Shown here: positions 53,718 through 64,000 of the stretch, one piece after another
How the letters are laid out: every line of letters begins with the position of its first letter
How positions within the stretch are numbered: position 1 is the first letter of the stretch
NCBI GenBank assembly: GCA_965204725.1
Contig: OZ242005.1
Location: 3,392,001 to 3,456,000 of the forward strand
Source: Candidatus Latescibacterota bacterium
GTDB taxonomy: Bacteria; Latescibacterota; UBA2968; UBA8231
Reading direction: 5' to 3'
Length of the DNA stretch: 64,000 nt
The notes under the pieces: model-generated
Told to the model about the DNA's origin: nothing
What the model saw: the letters and a program-made list of their open reading frames with translations, nothing else
The model's database searches: none
Translations under genes and position numbers: made by a program

Positions 53718-54488
53718 CTAATTGGCCTTTTCCAATTCGGGCAGCAGCACGTCCTTGACCCAGCCAAAATCCGGGTCGATTTCAAGCGCCTTTTCAAAGG
53801 CCGCACGCGCCGACTCTAGCTCGCCTCGGTCTTGGTACGCGAGGCCGAGCCAAGCGTAAGTGCGGCTGTGTCCCCATGTCGGTTGGATGGGATCGGTTGG
53901 CTCTTCGCGGGCAAAGAGTTCGGCCGCGCGCTGGAATCCTTGCAGGCCCTTTTCCTTGCTTCCACCAAACATTTTTGGGGTATTGAAAGCACTGATGGCC
54001 GCGCTCAGCATCACGCGCGGATTGTCGGGGGCGAGCTGTAGGGCTTTTTGGGCAGCCTTTCCTGCTCTGGGGCCTAAGACCATGCTCTTGACCGGGTTGA
54101 GGGCGATCTGTCTTCCGTACGCACTCGACAGCAGAGAATAGGCTTCGGCGGCTTGAGGATCGAGCCGGGTGGCCTCTTTCAAATGCTCGACAGCGGTTTT
54201 GAGATGTTCAGAGACCGCGTCTTTGTTTTGTTCGCCCGCGGCGAATAGGCGATCGGCGATGCGGTAATCGGCCAAGGCGATGTAGTAGTGGCCCCACGCG
54301 GTCGAGCTGGTATCGGCCAAGGCGCGCTCGAATGTGGCCCGCGCCGCGTACATCGCATCGAGGTCGCTCGCGTTTTCACCGGCTTGCAGCATCTGTTTTC
54401 CACTGACGAGGAGGCTGTCGCCCGATTGCGCGCGAGTGGGATAGGCGATAGAGGCGACAAAGACGAGGGAGAGCAGCAAACGTTGCAT
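53718..54488 (-). CDS. Secreted TPR protein associated with a TonB-dependent receptor
   Basis: Signal peptide; PDNPR...TPKMFGG; TPR at C-terminus; AGGAG RBS. Confidence 0.82.
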   Translation of the reverse strand: MQRLLLSLVFVASIAYPTRAQSGDSLLVSGKQMLQAGENASDLDAMYAARATFERALADTSSTAWGHYYIALADYRIADRLFAAGEQNKDAVSEHLKTAVEHLKEATRLDPQAAEAYSLLSSAYGRQIALNPVKSMVLGPRAGKAAQKALQLAPDNPRVMLSAAISAFNTPKMFGGSKEKGLQGFQRAAELFAREEPTDPIQPTWGHSRTYAWLGLAYQDRGELESARAAFEKALEIDPDFGWVKDVLLPELEKAN

Positions 54489-54526: not shown

Positions 54527-56775
54527 TTAGTAGTTTAAGGAGAAACTGGCCCCGAAGTATATGGAGCGGCGGAAATTGGTGGTACGCGGTTGGCGTTGGG
54601 TATAGTCAATGCTGTAATCGTAGTCGAGCACGTTGGCGCGGTTGAGCAGGTTGCCGATGGCCAAGTAGAAAACGGCTTGGTGGCCGCTACCAAAGAACAG
54701 CACGTAACTCAACTGCCCATCCAGCTCTTGAAACGACGGCAGACGCTGTGAGCCGACCGGCCCTCTATGGGGAGGTAGTAATTTTGGTCCGCTACTCGAA
54801 TGGCATCGATAACAGGGGTAATGGGCCGACCGGTGGCGTGTCTTAGGGTCAGGCCGCCGCTGAGTGCGCCGACGAGTCGCGCTTTGGCGACCAAGGTCAG
54901 GTTGTGGGTAATGTCAAAGGGCGAAGGGGCCACTTCGTACTCCATATCCATCCCATTATAGCGCACCTGCTCTCGGCGCGAGCGCAGCAGACTGTAGGCC
55001 ATCCACCCGCTCAAGCGCGTATTGAGAAAAGCGCCGTACTTGAGGAACAAATCGGCCCCCGAGGCCCGGCCCTCGCCTGTGTTGGCAACATGGACCGGAG
55101 CAGGATGGTCAATGACGAGGTTGCGATACGGTTTGTAGTAGAGTTCGAGTCGAGCGGTGAAGTGGTCGCGCTCGTGGTGTAAGCCGCTTACCCAGTGCTG
55201 GGCGCGTTGGGCCTTCAGCTTGGGGTTGCCGCTGGTCGGATTGTACTCAAACGGCGCGGCGAATTGGTGATAGATGCCCCAAGCGAGCCGCACACTCGTG
55301 TACTTGGATAGCAGGTATCGCGCAGACAGGCGCGGATCTACGACAAAACGGCCGGATAGATCGTGGTGGTCGGTACGCACCCCAACTTGGGCGACGATGC
55401 GGCGCATGAGTCTAAAATCGGTTTCAACATAGGCCCCCGTGCGCCTAGTGCTATAGGAGGTATCGAACTCAAAGACCGCTGCCCCGGGGTCGAGAATCTC
55501 TCTCTGCGGAAAACTGCCCAGCAATCGGTTCGCACTGTGTTCGCTTTCGGCCCCCAAGCGCACAGCCTTATCAGTGCCGAGGGGACGTTCTAGATCGGTG
55601 CGAACTTTGAGGGTCCAGTCGCGGGGCGTCAAGTCTAGGTTGCCTAGCTGCTGCCGGGCATTGTAGCGGTTGAGCGAGGCACTGGTCTGGATGCTCCAAC
55701 TGGCCCACTCTTCTGTCCACTGGAGGTTGTGCAAATAGCTGTCCGTGCGGCTGCGATAAAGGCCATTGAAGGAAGGCTCGACGACTTTCACCCCGAGGCG
55801 GTTGTTGGAGTTGAAGTTGAATAGCTTGAGGCGTCCAGTCGGCGAGTATTGGTACACTAGGTTGAGATTGCCGTCGTACCCACGCGGGGTAGTGGTAAAG
55901 GTGTTGCGGTAACCATTGACGCGAAACAGGAGATCGGTAAAGCCGAGGTTGCCGGTGAAGCGCAGGCCGAGCTTGTCGTCTATCAGCGGCAGGTCCAGTG
56001 CAAGCGAGCCGGCCGCGAGGCCCAAACCGAGCGTATAGCGCCGTTGCTCGGGCATGTTTTGACTTTCCATGGACAGCACCGCAGAAAGCGCGTTGCCATA
56101 GCGCGCCGAGAACCCGCCGGTGGAAAAGACCGTGCCCTGTACCATAAAGGGAGAAATCGTGCCAAATACTCCGCCGGTGGGCGATTCGTATCTATAGGGA
56201 TGCACCACCGTGGCTTGATCGAGCAAAACAACGGTCTCGCTCACATCGCCCCCGCGCACAAAAAGACCGGCCCCGTCATCTACGGTGGCAACGCCGGGAA
56301 AGGTCTTGACCGCGAGAAAAATATCGGCCGAGGCCCCAGCCGTCGTCACTACGTCCAAAGGCGAGAGCGTGACGGTCTCATCCTCTCCGGTGGTATAAGT
56401 GCTCACTGAGACGACGGTTTCCCCGAGCTCGATGAGGGCGAACCTGAGTATTAAGCGAACCGTTGCGGTGTCGCCAGCGACTAAGTGCATGGTTTGCCGG
56501 GTAGGCTCAAAGCCGATGCAGGAGGCACTCAGGTCGTGTTGCCCGAGGTGGCGCGTGGAAAAGGCAAAGCGGCCGTCGCGCCCGGTTGTCGCGCCGGCTG
56601 TGGTCCCGACGATTTGTACATTGGCAAAGGCAACCGGCTGTCCAGTTTCATCGACGACCCGTCCCTGTACGAGGGCCACGCTCTCAGCAAAGGTTGGGCC
56701 GCCGTGCAGACCGACGAGCAGGAGAACCCAGAACAGGACCAGCGCGGCCTGTCGGGCGGTGCATCTTCTATCCAT
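54527..56775 (-). pseudogene. TonB-dependent receptor, frameshifted near the 3' end (or a sequencing error)
   Basis: Carboxypeptidase-regulatory-like N-domain, plug (LFVRGG, TGGFSARYGNALS); adding one base near 54760 joins ...LPIEG to PVGSQRLPSFQELDGQLSY...FGASFSLNY. Confidence 0.8.
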
Positions 56776-56781
56776 TGCGTC

Positions 56782-56997
56782 CTAATGGTCCAATCCCGGC
56801 AATAAGTGGTCTTTTACCCAGCCGTTGTTGGGGTTCACTTCAAGAGCTTTGACAAAGGCTTGCCGCGCCCCTTCGGGGTCGCCGGTCTCCTGACGCATGA
56901 TGCCGAGGTGGACACAGGCTTCGTCGTAGCCCCAAGAGGGTTGGAAGGGGTCGCGGATTTCCTCTTTGGCGAACAACTCAAGGGCTTGATCCGGAAG
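56782..56997 (-). pseudogene. C-terminal remnant of a TPR protein paralogous to 53718..54488
   Basis: ALELFAKEEIRDPFQPSWG...AFVKALEVNPNNGWVKDHLLP aligns with AAELFAREEPTDPIQPTWG...AFEKALEIDPDFGWVKDVLLP; no N-terminus. Confidence 0.75.
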
Positions 56998-56998
56998 A

Positions 56999-57700
56999 CT
57001 AGCCGATACTGCCTAGGGCAGCGGCGAAGGAAAGCCAAACAATCGTTATGATACCAACTCCAGCGTAGGCTTTGCGGCGATCAAACTGCCCGATAATAGA
57101 CAGGCCGAGACCAGTGATTACAACGCTCCAAACGACAAAGGGATCAATGAGAGACAATAAGTGCCCACTGAAGCTTCGGAGAGCCTCTTCGGAGAGGAAC
57201 ACCCCCAAGCCTATTTGCACTAGCGGTGTCTCTGTGGCCAATATTAGCAATGTCTTGACAATATGTTGGGGGATATTTATCAACCCCGCATAGACTACTA
57301 TGGTTAGGACTTGTCCGTAGGAGAGCAGGCCGCCTAGTAATTTACCCACCAGTAGGCAAAGCGCGGCAAATATAAAAATAAAAACGAAAAGCACAATAGG
57401 TGTAACGATCAGAGTACTAGCCTGCATGATGCCTTGGGTTCGGTATTGCTCCACTATCTTGCGCTCTTCGTCGGATATGCCCTGCATCCGTTGCTGCATG
57501 ACTTCTCGGTTGAATTCAGCCGTAAAGGGCAGGATAAGCACAGCGGCAATCGTGGCAACTACAACGTTCAAAGTAGCAGGCACAAGCCAGTCGGCAGCAC
57601 TGCGCTTGCGGGCGAGGGATTCAAAGGTTTCTCTCGGCGTGTAGAAGAGGCGAATCATGCGGTTGATGAGGCCGATTTCGGCTTGGGATGTAGGTTCCAT
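56999..57700 (-). CDS. Yip1 family membrane protein
   Basis: LFYTPRETFESL, five TMs, IDPFVVWSVV..GLGLS; AAGGAGG RBS. Confidence 0.85.
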   Translation of the reverse strand: MEPTSQAEIGLINRMIRLFYTPRETFESLARKRSAADWLVPATLNVVVATIAAVLILPFTAEFNREVMQQRMQGISDEERKIVEQYRTQGIMQASTLIVTPIVLFVFIFIFAALCLLVGKLLGGLLSYGQVLTIVVYAGLINIPQHIVKTLLILATETPLVQIGLGVFLSEEALRSFSGHLLSLIDPFVVWSVVITGLGLSIIGQFDRRKAYAGVGIITIVWLSFAAALGSIG

Positions 57701-57824
57701 GAAGACTCCTCCTTATTAAAAGAGATGAGTTTATCTCTATAACATCGTATTTACTAAAAACGTGTTTGACATATAGCAGACGAACCATAAACTAAAATGG
57801 GACCGAGGATTTTTCTAGTACCAA

Positions 57825-58628
57825 TTAAGGTTGAGCTGGTATAAAGGCTGATAGCTCCAGAGCCAAAACTGACATATTGCGTATAAAGTGGTATATAATG
57901 GAAGGATAAAGGGAGCGTGTTCCCTGATACAAAAAAAACGAAAGACTCTGTGTCATAAACGTAACGATAAATTCCCTTAGATGTTCCTCTGAAAACGGAG
58001 AGTAATGGTGGTAGCTGAAGATGAACGCGGTAATAGTGAAACCGAGAACGAACCCCAATCGATTTCTCAAAGCAGGGAATATCAGGCCGGTAAAATATGC
58101 CTCCTCTATAACAGGGGCAATCAGTAAAACGCGAACTGAGTGTGGAATGATAAGGAGAAATATAGTACGAGATTTTTCGTCCCAGTCGGCTTCCTCAGTC
58201 CAAGGTGTTAGAATGGGATTGGGATTTATTAAGTGGATATCAATTCCCTGGAGCTTCATGTAAAGGAAAAAGGCCAATACACTTACTCCGGATATCAACA
58301 ATAAAAAGTTAAATTTTAAAACGAACTTTTTTGATTCTCTGGGAATTTGAATGGACAATCCCAGTGTTTGGGTGTTTAGATCCTGTTTTTCTATTTTGGA
58401 GAATGCTACGACAACCAAAATAAGTAGAACATAAGGAATAGTACATAATAATACGAGAAGGTAGTCGCTCAAAGCGAATAGATTAAGTATAGTATCGACA
58501 GTATAGCGAAAGAAAAAGAACATAAAAATGGCTAGTAGAAAGGTAGAAAACATTCTACATCGTATATTTTCAAACTTTCTGGTAAATACGGAATAAATGT
58601 ATTGGTCCATTGTATGGATTTTTTTCAT
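57825..58628 (-). CDS. CPBP (CAAX/Abi) family intramembrane glutamic endopeptidase
   Basis: APVIEEAYF.G, FSYHH, SLYPSIIYHFIRN; start 58628 preferred because 58709 would read through a hairpin. Confidence 0.82.
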   Translation of the reverse strand: MKKIHTMDQYIYSVFTRKFENIRCRMFSTFLLAIFMFFFFRYTVDTILNLFALSDYLLVLLCTIPYVLLILVVVAFSKIEKQDLNTQTLGLSIQIPRESKKFVLKFNFLLLISGVSVLAFFLYMKLQGIDIHLINPNPILTPWTEEADWDEKSRTIFLLIIPHSVRVLLIAPVIEEAYFTGLIFPALRNRLGFVLGFTITAFIFSYHHYSPFSEEHLREFIVTFMTQSLSFFLYQGTRSLYPSIIYHFIRNMSVLALELSAFIPAQP

Positions 58629-58668
58629 GAATACACCTGCTTCTTCCATTAGTTGCTGGCGAAGACTT

Positions 58669-58704
58669 TGAGCTACCAGTCTCGATAAGGAGACTGGTAG
58701 CTCA
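58669..58704 (-). terminator. Perfect 15-bp stem-loop between precursor and CPBP genes (stabiliser/attenuator, no U-tract on the coding strand)
   Basis: TGAGCTACCAGTCTC-gataag-GAGACTGGTAGCTCA. Confidence 0.65.
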
Positions 58705-58706
58705 TC

Positions 58707-58738
58707 CATTCACCATGTAGAGGTTGTGGGTTTCATCT
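58707..58738. repeat. Arm of the inverted repeat on the 3' side of the precursor gene
   Basis: cattcaccatgtagaggttgtgggtttcatct; 26/32 identical to the reverse complement of 59079-59110. Confidence 0.85.
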
Positions 58739-58781
58739 AGGTTGGCTTCTTACTGATTTTGTTTGTTGTTTTTCAGGCTTC

Positions 58782-59054
58782 TTACGGATTGCGGGCGTAT
58801 GATGCTTCTCGGTCTTGCCTTGAAGACTCTAGGGTACCGTAGAGGGCCATCGCAGCAGCTGTGAGGGCGACGTCAGCCGCTAAAGCAATTCCTATTATTG
58901 CCCAAGGAATAGCTCCCCCTTTGATATCTCGAGCTTCAGAAGACGTAATAGGTTTTGAAACGATCTCACTGTTGCTCGGTGCGATACTATAGGCGCACAA
59001 ACCCAAGGCTGTCGCCAGAGCTGTTACACCTTTAGTTTTGATAAGTTTAGTCAT
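58782..59054 (-). CDS. Double-glycine (GG) leader precursor peptide, bacteriocin/RiPP-like
   Basis: ITSSEARDIKGG|AIPWAIIGIALAADVALTAAAMALYG...; strong GAAAGGAG RBS; adjacent C39 peptidase. Confidence 0.8.
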   Translation of the reverse strand: MTKLIKTKGVTALATALGLCAYSIAPSNSEIVSKPITSSEARDIKGGAIPWAIIGIALAADVALTAAAMALYGTLESSRQDREASYARNP

Positions 59055-59078
59055 GATGTTCTCCTTTCTTTAGGAAGA

Positions 59079-59110
59079 AGATGACAACCCTTACCTCCAC
59101 ATGGTGAATG
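59079..59110. repeat. Arm of the inverted repeat on the 5' side of the precursor gene
   Basis: agatgacaacccttacctccacatggtgaatg; reverse complement cattcaccatgtggaggtaagggttgtcatct. Confidence 0.85.
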
Positions 59111-59112
59111 TT

Positions 59113-59658
59113 TTATTTTTTTGTCAATATCAAAATCTCTCCTTTCCATATACGATTGAATGCCCCTTTTCCAATTCTGAGCCTGCCAATGGCTGGATCT
59201 CTCAAGATGACCTCACCATGTTCATCGATTCGGTCTAACACCGCAAAGTGATCATCCTCAATAAAGACCACTGCCGGAAGCGGTTTGCTTTCTAGGTCAT
59301 CTATATTTAGTCTCCAAGCTTCAGCATGTACTCCTTGACTTTCGGCGTATTTCATCAGGTCGAATAAGGAAGAACCTGTCTCGTCCAGTCTAATCATGTC
59401 TTCAATATCTGTAAGATCTTGGTCTATACCTAGGCTATCCAAAACCATTTTAAGAGCTACAGGACCACAATTCATTTTACGTGTCTGTAGAATGACTCCT
59501 TCTGTCCCTTCGTATTCCGCACCTTTCAACCATGCCGCCAAGTTACGGTATATGGTTTCACTCGTAATGGATACGGCGACTAATTGCAAGCTAGAAGCAA
59601 AAAAGATGACTAATACTATTGCCGCTCCAATCGTTAATTTACTTTTCCAAAGCGTCAT
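59113..59658 (-). CDS. Stand-alone C39 cysteine peptidase with N-terminal membrane anchor
   Basis: QTRKMNCGPVAL, GSSLFDL, HFAVL, DPAIG; no ABC domains. Confidence 0.9.
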   Translation of the reverse strand: MTLWKSKLTIGAAIVLVIFFASSLQLVAVSITSETIYRNLAAWLKGAEYEGTEGVILQTRKMNCGPVALKMVLDSLGIDQDLTDIEDMIRLDETGSSLFDLMKYAESQGVHAEAWRLNIDDLESKPLPAVVFIEDDHFAVLDRIDEHGEVILRDPAIGRLRIGKGAFNRIWKGEILILTKK

Positions 59659-59676
59659 ACTTGATATAAATTATTA

Positions 59677-62226
59677 CTATCCTTTTGCGAAGGTATCGTC
59701 TGTGATATTACACTGTAGTGCTGGTTCCTGAACAGTCTTTATCTTTTCTTCGACTCGATTAGCATAGTCATACATATCTATTCCGACGAAAATTTTTGAT
59801 GCCATCATCCACAAAGCAATAGCTTTTGCTTTTGACTCTTTTTGGGCAGCCACATCTCCCATACCTGTATAGGCAAGTCCTTGTCCTAGTTCGTCACCTA
59901 TCCTTTTGCATATAGACAGAGCTCTACCATAACAAGCTTCAGCTTCACTCCATTGTCCTCTAAGCTGATGTATCTCGCCCAGACTAGCAAGTCCGTAGGC
60001 GGATCCCTTTTCGTCATCCTCAGCTTCGTATATCCCCAGTGCAGTCCTCTGCTCTTGGTACGCGTCTTCATATTGTCCGCATTGGATATATACGAGACTT
60101 AAAGTAGTTCGGGCTGTAGCAATAGCTTGCTGATTAGGCGAGTCTGGAGTAAGGCGTAGGTAATCGCATAAGAATTCCTTGGCTTTATCAAATTTTTTAC
60201 TATGAGCATACAATTTTCCGAGAGATAAATAGCACTCATTCACATCGGATGACATACCTATACGTTCAAATAGACCTATCGAGTGATGCAGGTAGGATTC
60301 TGCCAGAGGGAAATCTCCGCGATAGAAATGTACATTCGCTAGTATTTTATATGAGTACGCTTTTCCCTTTTCATCCGCCAAGCTTTGGTTAGCCTCTAAG
60401 GCAGCTTTGCCGTACTCTAGTGCTTTTTCCATATTTCCCATTAGAAGGTGTATCGAAGAAAATAATCCATAATGTAATGCCAATCCCTCTTTTCTATTCG
60501 CCTTTTTGTCTATATCAATAGCCTGTTCCAGTAGAGTATGTGCTTCGTAAATACGGCCTTGGATTTTTCTCAAATTTGCAAGCGAATTGTACTGGTTAGC
60601 AATCCCCTCGGAGTCTCCGATTTCTTTGTAAATAGCTAAAGATTCCTCGTAAAGTTTCTCTGCTGAATTCAAGTCGTCTTTTAGAAGATGCACAGTACCC
60701 AAGTTGCTAGTAACTAAGGCATAATCTTCTCGACAACTTATTTTTTTGTGAAGACTCTGTGCTTTTATATAAAAATCCTCAGCTTCGGCGAGATTTCCTT
60801 GTAGCTGCGTGATAAATCCTTTGCAGGTATATCCTACAGCTAGCTTCCTCTTACTTTTATCATCCCCAGTTTGTGAAAAAATTGATATGGCCTCATCATA
60901 GCATTGACTCGCCTTATCTAATTCGCCTTTCAGCTCGCAAACCTTACCTTGGGAGATCAGTATGTTAGCCAATCCTGTAGTTGTTCCACCCCGAAGCCGA
61001 TTAACTTCTTTGGCCAATTCGATTTGAGATAAGGCAGATTCTAGACGACCGTTCTGCCAGTGCTCGTCAGCAGAGGCTAAAATAATTTCCCATTCTTCAG
61101 GATCACCTTGCTGATCAACCCGTTTGGCTACCTCGCTTTCAGTAGGGCTAAATTTGCAATGAGTAGGAAGCTCGGTCTCTAGGTTGAGCTGTGGGAGCAC
61201 ATCCAAGACCTCTTGATACTCTTTCCTGTCTGTTGCAGAGATCGTTCGATAGATATGGTCAAATTCAATCAGACTGTCTATAACTGACTCCTCTGGAAGA
61301 AAAGGATTAGGCCACAGATGCGCCCACCAGAAGTGGATCAGACGCACCAAGGGATCGCTATGTTTGCAGGCTATGTACTCAACCGCGGCGTATCGCTTCA
61401 CGCTTTCTGCTTTTGCCTTCTCAGGATCGGAGAAATTATGAGGATGGTACAGGTGATAAGAAGAGGCTTGGACACTGATAAATTGTCCACCTGTCGCCCC
61501 TAGGCGGTAGCCAAGTTCCCACCCTTCACAGAAAGGTATGGCATCATCGAATCCCCCTACTTTTTCTAGCAGCTTTAACGGTATGGCCATATTGTGAGGG
61601 TATAACCCAATCCAGCCTAGGGCCGGTTCTGCGACAGTTTCGTAAAGATCGTGAAATTCTCTCTGTATAGTACGGACTTCTTCAAACGGATAGCCTCCTT
61701 CCACTGCTTTTTCGATAATACTATCGAACTCATTGCACACCATACTCTCTGTGACAATCATCTTATCTCGATGTAGAGCCAAGAACCGGCGCAGTGAATA
61801 AGGCAGTGAGGTATCGAAAGGTGAACCTGTCTGAGGATCTTGGAAATACTCTAGGTCGGGAAGGACATATTGACAGCCACATAATACTGATTTCTGACCA
61901 TTCTCTTTATAGGCTTCTAAGTAGCACTGGAGTAGTTCCGGGGCTGGTAGTGCATCTCCATCTAGGAAAACGACTAATGAACCGCATGCTCGCTCAACCC
62001 CTCTATTTCGTGCTCGACACCGGCCCTGATTCGTTTCAAAATATTCAACTTTGAGATTGTGCATCTTCAGTGATTCTAGCATTGCTCCAGTGCCGTCGGT
62101 AGAACCGTCGTCAACCACTATTACTTCAAAACGATCACTTGGAATATTCTGATTTTCTAAGCCACTTAACACGAGACGGAGGCGTTCTTTCTGGTTATAC
62201 GTGGCTACGATTACACTTGTATCCAT
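59677..62226 (-). CDS. GT2 glycosyltransferase with long C-terminal TPR array
   Basis: SVIVATYN, VVDDGSTD, ARNRG, FLDGD, VGGFD, HLYH; about 10 TPRs; TAATG coupling to the upstream gene. Confidence 0.9.
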   Translation of the reverse strand: MDTSVIVATYNQKERLRLVLSGLENQNIPSDRFEVIVVDDGSTDGTGAMLESLKMHNLKVEYFETNQGRCRARNRGVERACGSLVVFLDGDALPAPELLQCYLEAYKENGQKSVLCGCQYVLPDLEYFQDPQTGSPFDTSLPYSLRRFLALHRDKMIVTESMVCNEFDSIIEKAVEGGYPFEEVRTIQREFHDLYETVAEPALGWIGLYPHNMAIPLKLLEKVGGFDDAIPFCEGWELGYRLGATGGQFISVQASSYHLYHPHNFSDPEKAKAESVKRYAAVEYIACKHSDPLVRLIHFWWAHLWPNPFLPEESVIDSLIEFDHIYRTISATDRKEYQEVLDVLPQLNLETELPTHCKFSPTESEVAKRVDQQGDPEEWEIILASADEHWQNGRLESALSQIELAKEVNRLRGGTTTGLANILISQGKVCELKGELDKASQCYDEAISIFSQTGDDKSKRKLAVGYTCKGFITQLQGNLAEAEDFYIKAQSLHKKISCREDYALVTSNLGTVHLLKDDLNSAEKLYEESLAIYKEIGDSEGIANQYNSLANLRKIQGRIYEAHTLLEQAIDIDKKANRKEGLALHYGLFSSIHLLMGNMEKALEYGKAALEANQSLADEKGKAYSYKILANVHFYRGDFPLAESYLHHSIGLFERIGMSSDVNECYLSLGKLYAHSKKFDKAKEFLCDYLRLTPDSPNQQAIATARTTLSLVYIQCGQYEDAYQEQRTALGIYEAEDDEKGSAYGLASLGEIHQLRGQWSEAEACYGRALSICKRIGDELGQGLAYTGMGDVAAQKESKAKAIALWMMASKIFVGIDMYDYANRVEEKIKTVQEPALQCNITDDTFAKG

Positions 62227-63998
62227 TATATACACTCCACCCTCAGATGATATTGGCATTTCAGATTTGGTATATAGTTCCACCCATCTTTACCTTCTAT
62301 TAGGCAGGAGGGCAGTGTCTTAGCAGAATTGGAAAACATTAGTCGTTGGTTATCTAAGTGGCCAAAATAGTAAGAATCAAAAGATCGAGTATTTCGTTTT
62401 ATGTATGTTTTTAATTTAAGATCTTCGACATTGTATTCGTTTATAGAAACTTCGCCGATAGCCATACTGAGAAATTCAACGGGTATCCAGCCTGATTCTT
62501 CTAGATAAATTTCGGCCCACGTGTGGCCTACCATAGGCTCGTCTATACTTCTGTATTCGTACACCTGTCCAGAAATTGGAAATCCCAACAAGGTTCCACA
62601 TCTCTCTCTAGCAGGAATACCGACCATTCTACACAGAGCTATAAAGGTTCTCGCAAAGTGAATACAATTGCCACCGATGTTATTCAGCAAAATAGCCGAA
62701 CTATCGGCCAGACCCACCGCAGGTATCTTAGTCTTCCTGAATTTTTTAGTTCTGATTAGTTTGCTGTAGAAGGCCCAAGCCAGTTCTTTTTTATCGCAAG
62801 GCGCGGATGCTTCGAGTATCTCGGAGAGCACTTGCTCCAGTTCTGGCAGTTTGTCTAAGACCTCGTCGGTATATAAATACTTCGACCTCTCCCAGTCCGA
62901 GAGGGTGTGTTCGCCTCTACCTTCAGCATTATACTCGCTGACTTCAAGTTCGCAAGTATATGAAAAATTTGCCGAATTTGATTTTACAGTGAAGGGATAT
63001 GCATAGAAGAATCCAAACTTGCTGCGTAAACAGTATTTCATATTCTCTGGGAAACAGTCGATTAGACTAACGGCCTTTTGGTCTTCTGTCTCCAAAGGAT
63101 ATGGTATAAAAGCTCTTAACTGGTGATCCGGTTTTTCAGTGAGATGTATGTCGTAGGAGTAGGTCATTTTATAACGCTGGGTATGAGATTTTGAACGTAT
63201 GTTACCTGTTTCATCTATATCGAAAAAGACACGTCGTCTTTGATCGCAGGCCTTGTATTCAGCCTCAAAAAATCGAGCCTCTCTTTCGTATAGCCAGTTC
63301 CAAGAGTCTATTCTATCGAAGAAATACTGATTGCCCTGTCGCCAGTGAGGTATCCCTTTTTTAATACCTTGCCTTAGCATTTCACGCAGCGATTCAATTG
63401 ATAGGGTGGAAGGAGTAGTACCGTCGAGTTGCTGTAAGAATTCATTTTCACCTACCAGAAATTTAGGATCGTAACGGAGTGCCGTATAACGGTTTAAAAA
63501 ATAATCATCCACCCAGTCTGCTACTACGTCTTTTTCACACCATCGCTTCAATAAATTGGCAATAGAATCCAACTGAATCTCCATTTTATCCCAGACATCT
63601 AGAGTTCTCCCTAGTATTTGTGTAATATTGTGATAATTAAATCTATCCGGATCTATTTTCAGACCTAAACTAACCGCTTCGAGTCTATCGAGATGGAGAT
63701 CCTGATCTAAAGTGGTTGCTATACCGATAGGCAAAACTCCATGAAGTAAAGCACTATATAGGGTCTCTATATCTAAATCTCCAATTATTATATGTATTCT
63801 TTCCCATGGCGGATCTCTATAGATTTCATCGACAAACTCTATGTGGCTTTCAGGTCGCTTTACTCCTCGGGTAGATTCTACTAGTAAGCGATAAGGGATC
63901 TCCATCCCGGATGTATTCTGTCTCAGTATATCTTCTTTTAGAAGATTTCTGGGATCTTTTATATAGACGACAGGAAATGACTTATCCTGTTTGCGAAG
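62226..63998 (-). CDS. Multidomain transglutaminase-like protein; 5'-truncated by window edge
   Basis: GNCIHFARTFIALCRMVGIPAR, GHTWAEIY...GWIPVE, YYFGHLD; frame stays open from 63905 to the window end. Confidence 0.85.
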   Translation of the reverse strand, partial: LRKQDKSFPVVYIKDPRNLLKEDILRQNTSGMEIPYRLLVESTRGVKRPESHIEFVDEIYRDPPWERIHIIIGDLDIETLYSALLHGVLPIGIATTLDQDLHLDRLEAVSLGLKIDPDRFNYHNITQILGRTLDVWDKMEIQLDSIANLLKRWCEKDVVADWVDDYFLNRYTALRYDPKFLVGENEFLQQLDGTTPSTLSIESLREMLRQGIKKGIPHWRQGNQYFFDRIDSWNWLYEREARFFEAEYKACDQRRRVFFDIDETGNIRSKSHTQRYKMTYSYDIHLTEKPDHQLRAFIPYPLETEDQKAVSLIDCFPENMKYCLRSKFGFFYAYPFTVKSNSANFSYTCELEVSEYNAEGRGEHTLSDWERSKYLYTDEVLDKLPELEQVLSEILEASAPCDKKELAWAFYSKLIRTKKFRKTKIPAVGLADSSAILLNNIGGNCIHFARTFIALCRMVGIPARERCGTLLGFPISGQVYEYRSIDEPMVGHTWAEIYLEESGWIPVEFLSMAIGEVSINEYNVEDLKLKTYIKRNTRSFDSYYFGHLDNQRLMFSNSAKTLPSCLIEGKDGWNYIPNLKCQYHLRVECI

Positions 63999-64000
63999 CA

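Follow-up and report, generated by a model that had tools for sequence, protein, structure and literature searches.

The 64,000-nt window analyzed here (Candidatus Latescibacterota bacterium GCA_965204725.1, contig OZ242005.1, positions 3,392,001 to 3,456,000) is part of a 5.38-Mb contig and contains a low guanine-plus-cytosine (GC) island of approximately 7.7 kb, in which exactly six genes follow one another in a single direction on the minus strand (56999-64700). Coordinates are those of the window, and 12 kb past its end was also examined. The genes encode a glycosyltransferase-transglutaminase fusion (gene A), a family 2 glycosyltransferase (GT2) fused to tetratricopeptide repeats (TPR), a stand-alone C39 peptidase, a 90-residue precursor-like peptide, a CPBP intramembrane protease homologue, and a Yip1-domain membrane protein, and a Pfam family could be assigned to every gene but that of the peptide (5/6). 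Judged by sequence comparison, the island is a conserved and apparently undescribed composite of a transporter-less double-glycine (GG) peptide module and a peptide-associated glycosylation triad composed of gene A, GT2, and TPR.

Gene content and boundaries of the island

GC content was 0.40 to 0.47 inside the cluster and 0.58 to 0.63 outside, and both the GC step and the positions of the six open reading frames (ORFs) agreed with the AT-rich, co-directional cluster reported in the initial annotation of the window. Retrieval of the sequence past 64000, which that annotation had proposed, completed gene A at 64700 (6226-8700 in L005 coordinates, corresponding to window 62226-64700), after which GC content returned to 0.57 to 0.61 and the next gene, encoding a GyrB/ParE-type topoisomerase subunit, had the GC content of the host. 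We conclude from the host-like GC of that gene that the cluster ends there and includes no further enzyme or transporter beyond 64000. At the opposite edge, a 64-residue ORF was 52% identical to the C-terminus of a TPR protein encoded at 53718-54488 and is probably what is left of a paralogue truncated at the island boundary. No ABC exporter, LanM, YcaO, radical SAM enzyme, or lasso-type cyclase was encoded in the island or its flanking genes, as had been noted earlier for the last four, and within the island there were no polysaccharide export, flippase, or sugar-nucleotide genes and no outer-membrane component. Moreover, there was no tRNA in a 20-kb stretch, no convincing direct repeat flanked the island, no mobility gene was found in the stretches scanned, and scans for promoters and terminators did not exceed shuffled sequence (16 versus 15.2 and 8 versus 6.3, respectively).

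Gene A had been annotated as a transglutaminase-like gene; the C-terminal PF01841 (Transglut_core) domain was confirmed (E 2.7e-13, 50.6 bits versus a cut-off of 23), but the gene had been cut by the window and, when followed to a TTG start about 700 nt past the window end, encodes an 824-residue fusion whose N-terminus aligns with those of its homologues. The protein consists of a GT-B half of the family 1 glycosyltransferase (GT1) type (residues ~30 to 400), a helical/beta-sandwich linker, and a transglutaminase (TGase)-fold core. An AlphaFold (AF2) model built from 43 aligned homologues had a mean predicted local distance difference test score (pLDDT) of 82.6, and Foldseek matched its first ~400 residues to SpnP, OleD, EryCIII, GtfA, and YjiC (E down to 8e-13) and its C-terminal part to 3isr, a transglutaminase-fold protein that is a putative cysteine protease. 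Searched against the PDB, the family profile of gene A matched YjiC (E 2.1e-22) and, weakly, 6g49, a protein-glutamine gamma-glutamyltransferase entry (E 9.1e-4). Cys679 and His726 were invariant in 43/43 sequences, residue 742 was either Glu (Glu742 here) or Asp, and the GT1 motif DQ[ED] was likewise kept in 43/43. GT1 enzymes canonically carry a Gly-rich nucleotide-sugar loop; the donor loop of gene A read GDLDIET or GDLDIKT in loci with the gene order of the window (class I) versus GIVGIGA or GIGGIGS in the other classes.

A TAATG overlap, read directly in the sequence, joins gene A to the GT2-TPR gene and places the start of the latter at 62226 rather than at an upstream GTG, and 18 nt separate the GT2-TPR stop from the start of the C39 gene; both overlap and gap were as first reported. 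The GT2-TPR protein has a GT-A domain (residues ~1 to 345) with a DxD motif of DGD, followed by TPR repeats (~420 to 830), and the two parts were fused only in class I loci and encoded by two separate genes elsewhere. By sequence, its top match in the PDB was chondroitin synthase (E 3e-14), followed by generic GT2s, and by fold, a GT2 model (pLDDT 82.7) had K4CP, AvpGT, TarS, WrtF, and ppGalNAcT2 as its top Foldseek matches. Structures of SunS are held in the PDB, but SunS was absent by name among the 50 sequence matches and absent among the Foldseek matches listed; a SunS-like GT2 is thus supported by neither sequence nor fold. Hydropathy indicated no membrane segment in either gene A or GT2-TPR of the window. 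A predicted complex of GT2-TPR with the peptide scored 0.00 in both runs, which were made without control runs.

The C39 protein was the sole C39 match in the whole genome, had 15 relatives at 55 to 92% identity, and keeps the Cys and His motifs of the family. Hydropathy indicated a single N-terminal membrane segment (residues 13 to 31) preceded by positive charges, and by the positive-inside rule the catalytic domain is probably on the periplasmic side. In NCBIfam, the protein matched FapD (E 9.7e-11, 41 versus 330 bits) and FilB (E 2.2e-8, 34 versus 475 bits) at scores far below the cut-offs, and a match to NHLP exporters was sub-threshold as well. A phylum-wide search found long C39-bearing ORFs of 478 to 1248 residues in other genomes and none in the window genome. 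The CPBP protein, called correctly at the outset together with the Yip1 protein, keeps the EE, FxxxH, and HxxxN motifs and had sub-threshold matches to the sorting proteases MrtS and MrtJ. CPBP orthologues are 15 to 30 residues shorter, and because the first codons of the long ORF overlap a conserved hairpin, translation probably begins downstream of 58709. The Yip1 protein has 5 hydrophobic segments and resembles YknW at a score below the cut-off (NF052650, 71.5 versus 110 bits).

Table 1. Features of the island and its edge, in window coordinates
Feature	Position	Strand	Basis or remark
Gene A, GT1-TGase fusion	62226..64000 (3′ part in window); whole gene to 64700	-	PF01841; ORF continues past window end
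GT2-TPR fusion, 849 residues	59677..62226	-	PF00535 E 1.3e-26; TPR_12 E 1.1e-45
Stand-alone C39 cysteine peptidase, 181 residues	59113..59658	-	PF03412 E 5.5e-28
Inverted repeat (32 nt), upstream arm	59079..59110	.	Kept in 5/5 class I loci
Precursor-like peptide, 90 residues	58782..59054	-	No Pfam family
Inverted repeat (32 nt), downstream arm	58707..58738	.	Kept in 5/5 class I loci
Stem-loop of 14-15 bp, just 3′ of peptide gene	58669..58704	-	Paired changes
CPBP/Rce1-like intramembrane protease homologue	57825..58709	-	PF02517 E 5.9e-13
Yip1-domain membrane protein	56999..57700	-	PF04893 E 8.2e-17
Probable TPR-protein remnant, 64 residues, island edge	56782..56976	-	Host-like GC; GC step

The precursor-like peptide and its message

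The peptide ORF is preceded by AGGAG 7 nt upstream of its ATG and, as originally quoted, encodes a 47-residue leader ending in IKGG (residues 44 to 47) and a 43-residue core. Nine relatives were found at 55 to 96% identity. A profile search of 1.84 billion representatives gave 5 matches to the same small family and added few more distant relatives, a metagenome scan with the peptide alignment gave 107 pattern matches of which none was confirmed, and a protein atlas gave a best score of 0.87 (guide value, 0.9) and a "putative bacteriocin" cluster at 0.77, neither of which was used. In the alignment of 10 sequences, the first 47 residues were the best conserved, insertions and deletions fell directly after the GG, and Gly46-Gly47, Cys20, Pro26, and Gln80 were invariant (10/10). 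The N-terminus carries three Lys followed by a hydrophobic segment (residues 9 to 25) and, in contrast to classical leaders, is signal-anchor-like; a second hydrophobic segment makes up the variable part of the core (residues 48 to 72) and contains a near-invariant Asp61, and the tail (residues 73 to 90) is conserved and polar. The core contains Ser, Thr, and Tyr but neither Cys nor Lys.

Substitution rates were summed over six pairs of four peptide genes. The leader had a nonsynonymous rate (pN) of 0.071 and a ratio of nonsynonymous to synonymous rates (pN/pS) of 0.22, the core had a pN of 0.205 and a pN/pS of 0.39, and the tail had a pN/pS of 0.39. With nine relatives and pN/pS values of 0.22 to 0.39, the gene is more than a chance ORF. 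We conclude that the peptide ORF is a coding gene under selection and that its core is more variable than its leader.

Double-glycine leaders have a hydrophobic residue at positions −4 and −12 and Glu at −8, and the peptide fits this consensus with Ile at −4 and −12 and Glu at −8. A match to TIGR03949 (lactobin A/cerein 7B, class IIb) reached 14.2 bits (E 0.028), below the cut-off of 21.5. Two other readings of the leader were considered. Lipoprotein processing at Cys20 was rejected, as the residue before Cys is Leu or Phe, against the lipobox rule, and cleavage by signal peptidase I after Ala25 is doubtful, as Pro26 is invariant.

The peptide gene is bracketed by a 32-nt inverted repeat that is kept in 5/5 class I loci, with 15 nt kept in the most distant. 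A 456-nt RNA with the long-range stem folded at −161.9 kcal/mol (z = −8.25), which none of 100 shuffled sequences equaled, and the repeat was also paired in a consensus fold. The long stem is almost invariant, so that its conservation indicates constraint and not, by itself, base pairing. The hairpin just 3′ of the peptide gene was also kept in 5/5 class I loci and showed pair-keeping changes on both sides in L007 and L009 (alignment columns 421/452 and 428/445). As no U-tract follows it, the hairpin probably acts in RNA stability or attenuation. The conserved RNA features may point to the precursor message being handled on its own, with a role at the DNA level as the alternative.

Distribution of the two modules

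A scan with the gene A alignment, with one genome taken per species, gave 48 loci, mostly in metagenome-assembled genomes labeled Candidatus Latescibacterota, with a few labeled Gemmatimonadota, Poribacteria, or Planctomycetota. Class I consisted of the window and four further loci, all of which have the six genes in the same order (5/5; L009 ends inside the CPBP gene). Protein identity within class I was 56 to 94%, and that of gene A was 56 to 89%. The GC content of the cluster was 42 to 44% versus 52 to 64% in the flanks at four of the five loci and 53% versus 57% at the fifth. The class I-type C39 was present in 3/31 genomes of the genus and 4/8 of the sister genus. We conclude that class I is rare and patchy in distribution.

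The peptide module also occurred without the enzymes. Three sister-genus genomes encode a C39 protein (45 to 48% identical), a related peptide, and one or two CPBP proteins in CPBP-C39-peptide-CPBP modules (L075:4046-6772, L076:4231-7128, and L077:9896-11777), surrounded by helix-turn-helix regulators and housekeeping genes, and no gene A, GT2, or TPR gene was found in the 14- to 20-kb stretches around them. The peptides of these modules have GA or GS in place of GG as the cleavage motif, and their C-terminal tails are unlike those of class I. The C39-peptide-CPBP module can thus, by its gene content, stand alone.

Conversely, the enzyme triad occurred without the peptide module. The gene A family was present in 33/168 genomes of the phylum, all of one family, with at least five matches in some genomes and 5 copies in the window genome. 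Outside class I, gene A was always beside a separate GT2 gene (~360 residues) and usually beside a separate TPR gene (~400 residues), and phmmer found no C39, GG peptide, CPBP, or Yip1 at these loci. Of the 142 triad ORFs scanned, 137 lacked a membrane segment. The initial annotation had called for a search for co-occurring loci: all five class I loci share one gene order, but 45/50 triad loci lack both C39 and the GG peptide.

Loci outside class I were sorted by their neighboring genes into classes II to IV, within which counts are not independent tests, and further peptide families were seen beside the triad paralogues (loci L010 to L050 and L060 to L063; e.g., L011:9425-9970 and L021:5740-5952). 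Class II loci adjoin genes for sigma-54 activators and a histidine kinase. Just upstream of gene A, 8/11 of them have a 72- to 89-residue ORF whose start is signal-like and whose C-terminus is conserved, acidic, and ended by P.PE, and the other three loci begin inside gene A. Peptide and gene A were separated by a median of 35 nt, and L011 carries the peptide gene twice in tandem. Class III loci adjoin genes for FG-GAP/FlgD_ig proteins, an A24/FlaK-like peptidase, AhpC/TSA redoxins, and DUF4159. A hidden Markov model search found 45 peptide ORFs in 19 of these loci, with up to 6 per locus (e.g., L012:687-1395), that have a strongly conserved leader and hypervariable cores with 4 to 10 Cys; some family members are longer and end in an FlgD_ig-type domain. 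Class IV loci adjoin genes for ABC-2 permeases, DUF1573, and an outer-membrane efflux protein, and 7 of them encode peptides of 44 to 92 residues with a signal-like start and 2 to 6 Cys. Among 10 representative class II to IV peptides, 9 matched no curated family; the match of the tenth to NapC/NirT (E 0.0053) was taken as chance.

Altogether, 39/50 loci with a strong gene A match contain a member of one of four peptide families with signal-like leaders. The window genome offered a check less open to circularity: 9/13 peptide-family matches lay no more than 16 kb from a copy of gene A, where such windows cover approximately 3% of the genome, and 6 of those 9 were at a single locus, so that few independent events are represented. 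Homologues of the TGase and GT2 without precursor or C39 neighbors had been named as what would refute the proposed class, and formally this is the case, as enzymes and peptide module were each found without the other; because the enzymes again lie beside small peptides, we read this as modularity and not as refutation.

Several other observations were made on these loci and around the island. The A24/FlaK-like prepilin/preflagellin peptidase of class III (385 residues; L012:6505-7662 and relatives) is conserved beside the Cys-rich peptides, in whose leaders a hydrophobic run follows a short polar stretch with Gly at its end; given this leader shape, it may be their leader peptidase. A second low-GC patch (0.36 to 0.40) about 5 kb past the window end (L005:12968-15758) encodes a BanI-type restriction endonuclease (E 3.1e-110) and an overlapping N4/N6 DNA methylase ORF. 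Just outside the island, at host GC, 54709-56775 encodes a TonB-dependent receptor with a CarboxypepD_reg domain, for which no link to the island was seen. Thirteen sequencing runs hold at least half of the sampled words of the locus, and their stated sources include sponge and marine metagenomes.

A proposed peptide-modifying role and its alternatives

From sequence we infer a scheme that makes the peptide the substrate of the enzyme triad and that also covers where and how the peptide is modified, its route of export, the membrane topology, and any antimicrobial action. The enzymes would be cytoplasmic and C39 would face outward, as the triad enzymes have no membrane segment and C39 is anchored. 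The triad would recognize the peptide through its TPR part and attach sugar ahead of export; between them the two transferases may assemble a disaccharide, and the likeliest target would be the Ser-, Tyr-, and Asn-bearing tail, which is specific to triad-linked forms of the peptide. The TGase-fold domain, with its Cys-His-Glu/Asp catalytic triad intact, could carry out a further step, either hydrolytic or transamidating. The peptide would enter the membrane by the general secretion (Sec) route through its signal-anchor-like N-terminus, and C39 would then cut after Gly47 to free a 43-residue peptide with a hydrophobic helix and a polar tail. CPBP and Yip1 may either give the producer protection or deal with the peptide within the membrane. 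We hold the central sequence of glycosylation in the cytoplasm, export, and cleavage by C39 tentatively, as somewhat short of an even chance.

The strongest new support for a peptide-modifying role is the occurrence of the triad beside three other small-peptide families, and the pattern across 50 loci and four families makes such a role the best single explanation. Also in its favor are the shared gene order, tight coupling, and low GC content of class I loci, the precursor-like conservation of the peptide, the lack of membrane segments in the enzymes, their retained catalytic residues, the conserved RNA structure around the peptide gene, and the different tails of peptides without a triad. 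Several points weigh against it. The likeness of GT2 to known enzymes, by sequence and by fold, is only generic to GT-A, and given its GDLDIET loop, the GT1 half of class I gene A may lack activity or take a different donor. It would be unusual for a glycosylated peptide to be exported through Sec. In class III, as much as 9.6 kb separates the peptides from gene A, and 11/50 loci had no peptide match; flanks are short or truncated at 7 of these loci (L017, L031, L038, L039, L042, L046, and L049) but not at the other 4 (L019, L022, L044, and L062). The peptide families were defined in the same loci in which they were counted, many of them close kin. Both modules occur alone, so that their linkage could reflect co-transfer and not function, and no RNA sequencing run was listed as holding the locus.

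One alternative is that the peptide is an unmodified GG peptide of class II type in a self-sufficient C39-peptide-CPBP module, and that the triad glycosylates another protein, a lipid, or a small molecule and merely shares an island with that module. The stand-alone modules of three sister-genus genomes, with neither glycosyltransferase nor TGase, are what this would predict, as are the 45/50 triad loci without C39 or GG peptide, and the sub-threshold TIGR03949 match points the same way. Moreover, CPBP/Abi proteins are class II bacteriocin immunity factors. Class II bacteriocins share with the island a GG leader, C39, a CPBP gene next to the peptide, and a hydrophobic helical core rich in small-xxx-small motifs. 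They differ in that the island has no peptidase-ABC exporter but a short membrane-anchored C39, that its 90-residue peptide has a signal-like start, and that two glycosyltransferases and a TGase-fold domain belong to the unit. Enzymes and peptide module are adjacent, co-directional, and overlapping or nearly touching in 5/5 class I loci, the GT2-TPR fusion is confined to loci with the GG peptide, the triad elsewhere is again beside small peptides, and the island lacks polysaccharide export, flippase, and sugar-nucleotide genes. We regard an unmodified peptide as rather unlikely.

A second alternative is that the product is not antimicrobial but a membrane-retained or surface (glyco)peptide or a signal, in which the two hydrophobic segments form a hairpin whose outer loop is cut by C39 and CPBP, rather than giving immunity, is a protease for sorting or maturation, a role proposed for CTERM-type systems. 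The two segments themselves, the near-invariant Asp within the second, and the lack of an exporter or outer-membrane component would suit this arrangement, as would the MrtS and MrtJ matches of CPBP, the FapD and FilB matches of C39, and the position of the class II triad among sigma-54 activators and histidine kinases. FapD and FilB, which are periplasmic C39 maturation peptidases, also resemble the island's C39 in being short and fused to no transporter. All of these NCBIfam matches are far below their cut-offs, however, and amyloid and pilus genes are absent from the island. It is more typical of antagonistic peptides that the core varies more than the leader, and a patchy, island-like distribution (3/31 genomes of the genus) suits an accessory competition trait. 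We consider this alternative improbable, and more so than an unmodified peptide.

The chemistry first proposed, in which the TGase fold would cross-link Gln80 to the amine freed by C39 and close a macrocycle, is the least probable by far: Gln80 is invariant in 10/10 close relatives, the catalytic triad is intact in 43/43 sequences, and 6g49 was a weak profile match, but the core has no Lys, the only new amine arises after a C39 cut that, by hydropathy and the positive-inside rule, falls across the membrane from a soluble enzyme, the nearest fold match is the putative cysteine protease 3isr, most bacterial PF01841 members are hydrolases, and the same domain is conserved in classes II to IV with unrelated peptides. 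Lasso peptide B proteins offer a likeness in their papain-like Cys-His-Asp/Glu core beside a precursor, and the TGase-fold domain of the island could likewise be a processing protease. Lasso systems differ in that the island has no Asn-synthetase-like cyclase or RiPP recognition element, and its TGase domain is fused to a glycosyltransferase. That domain belongs to PF01841 rather than to the lasso-type family.

Known glycosylating systems were also compared with the proposed glycosylation of the peptide. Glycocin clusters, as one account describes them, combine a precursor that has a double-glycine-type site with a SunS-like glycosyltransferase and a peptidase-ABC exporter of the SunT type, alongside thiol-disulfide oxidoreductases and a gene for immunity; the disulfides are described there as essential, and glycosylation is thought to be cytoplasmic and to precede export (PMC6405829). 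The island shares with glycocins (sublancin, pallidocin, glycocin F, and enterocin F4-9), whose Cys-bearing cores have nested disulfides and are glycosylated on Cys, Ser, or Thr, a GG-type site and a GT2 with helical repeats. It differs in a core without Cys, the absence of thiol-disulfide oxidoreductases (no thioredoxin or DsbB gene), a C39 not fused to an ABC exporter, a GT2 that is not SunS-like, a second, GT1-type transferase fused to a TGase fold, a leader with a long hydrophobic N-terminal part, and a host that is not a Firmicute. The initial view that the locus is no classical glycocin cluster is upheld by the Cys-free core, the missing exporter, and the distance from SunS. Class III loci, with Cys-rich cores and AhpC/TSA-type redoxins, are closer to glycocins than is the window cluster. 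Natural-product GT1s (YjiC, OleD, SpnP, and GtfA/D) share the N-terminal fold, a profile match, and DQ[ED] with gene A, and gene A differs from them in its TGase fusion, its class I GDLDIET loop, and the lack of small-molecule pathway genes nearby.

The layout of a ribosomally synthesized, post-translationally modified peptide (RiPP) cluster, with a conserved leader, a variable core, and adjoining enzymes and C39, is present in 5/5 class I loci. Full-text literature searches, whose coverage excluded subscription journals, found no description of the combination of enzymes and peptide, and matching passages of a paper on sponge Latescibacterota list generic antiSMASH classes. The locus had been put forward as a candidate new RiPP class; a conserved, undescribed composite with a precursor-like peptide is what that proposal leaves standing, and the class label is premature. 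More broadly, GT1-TGase, GT2, and TPR might define an unrecognized, lineage-restricted RiPP superfamily with at least four unrelated precursor families (GG-hydrophobic, acidic and P.PE-ended, multi-copy hypervariable Cys-rich, and short Cys-rich), Sec-type signal-like leaders in place of classical RiPP leaders, cytoplasmic modification, and TGase chemistry beyond glycosylation, such as transamidation involving sugar or Gln. This wider proposal is possible, though on the doubtful side.

If the peptide is unmodified, the island would represent a transporter-less double-glycine system with a membrane-anchored C39, a modest addition. If instead the triad modifies peptides, a GT1-TGase fusion, a GT2, and a TPR adaptor would be a new enzyme set for ribosomal peptide biosynthesis, and glycosylated peptides would occur outside Firmicute glycocins, in an uncultured and partly sponge-associated lineage. 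Approximately 50 loci would then offer naturally varied cores for study, and one could test both whether a Sec-type leader can act as a RiPP leader and which role a TGase fold takes on when joined to a glycosyltransferase.

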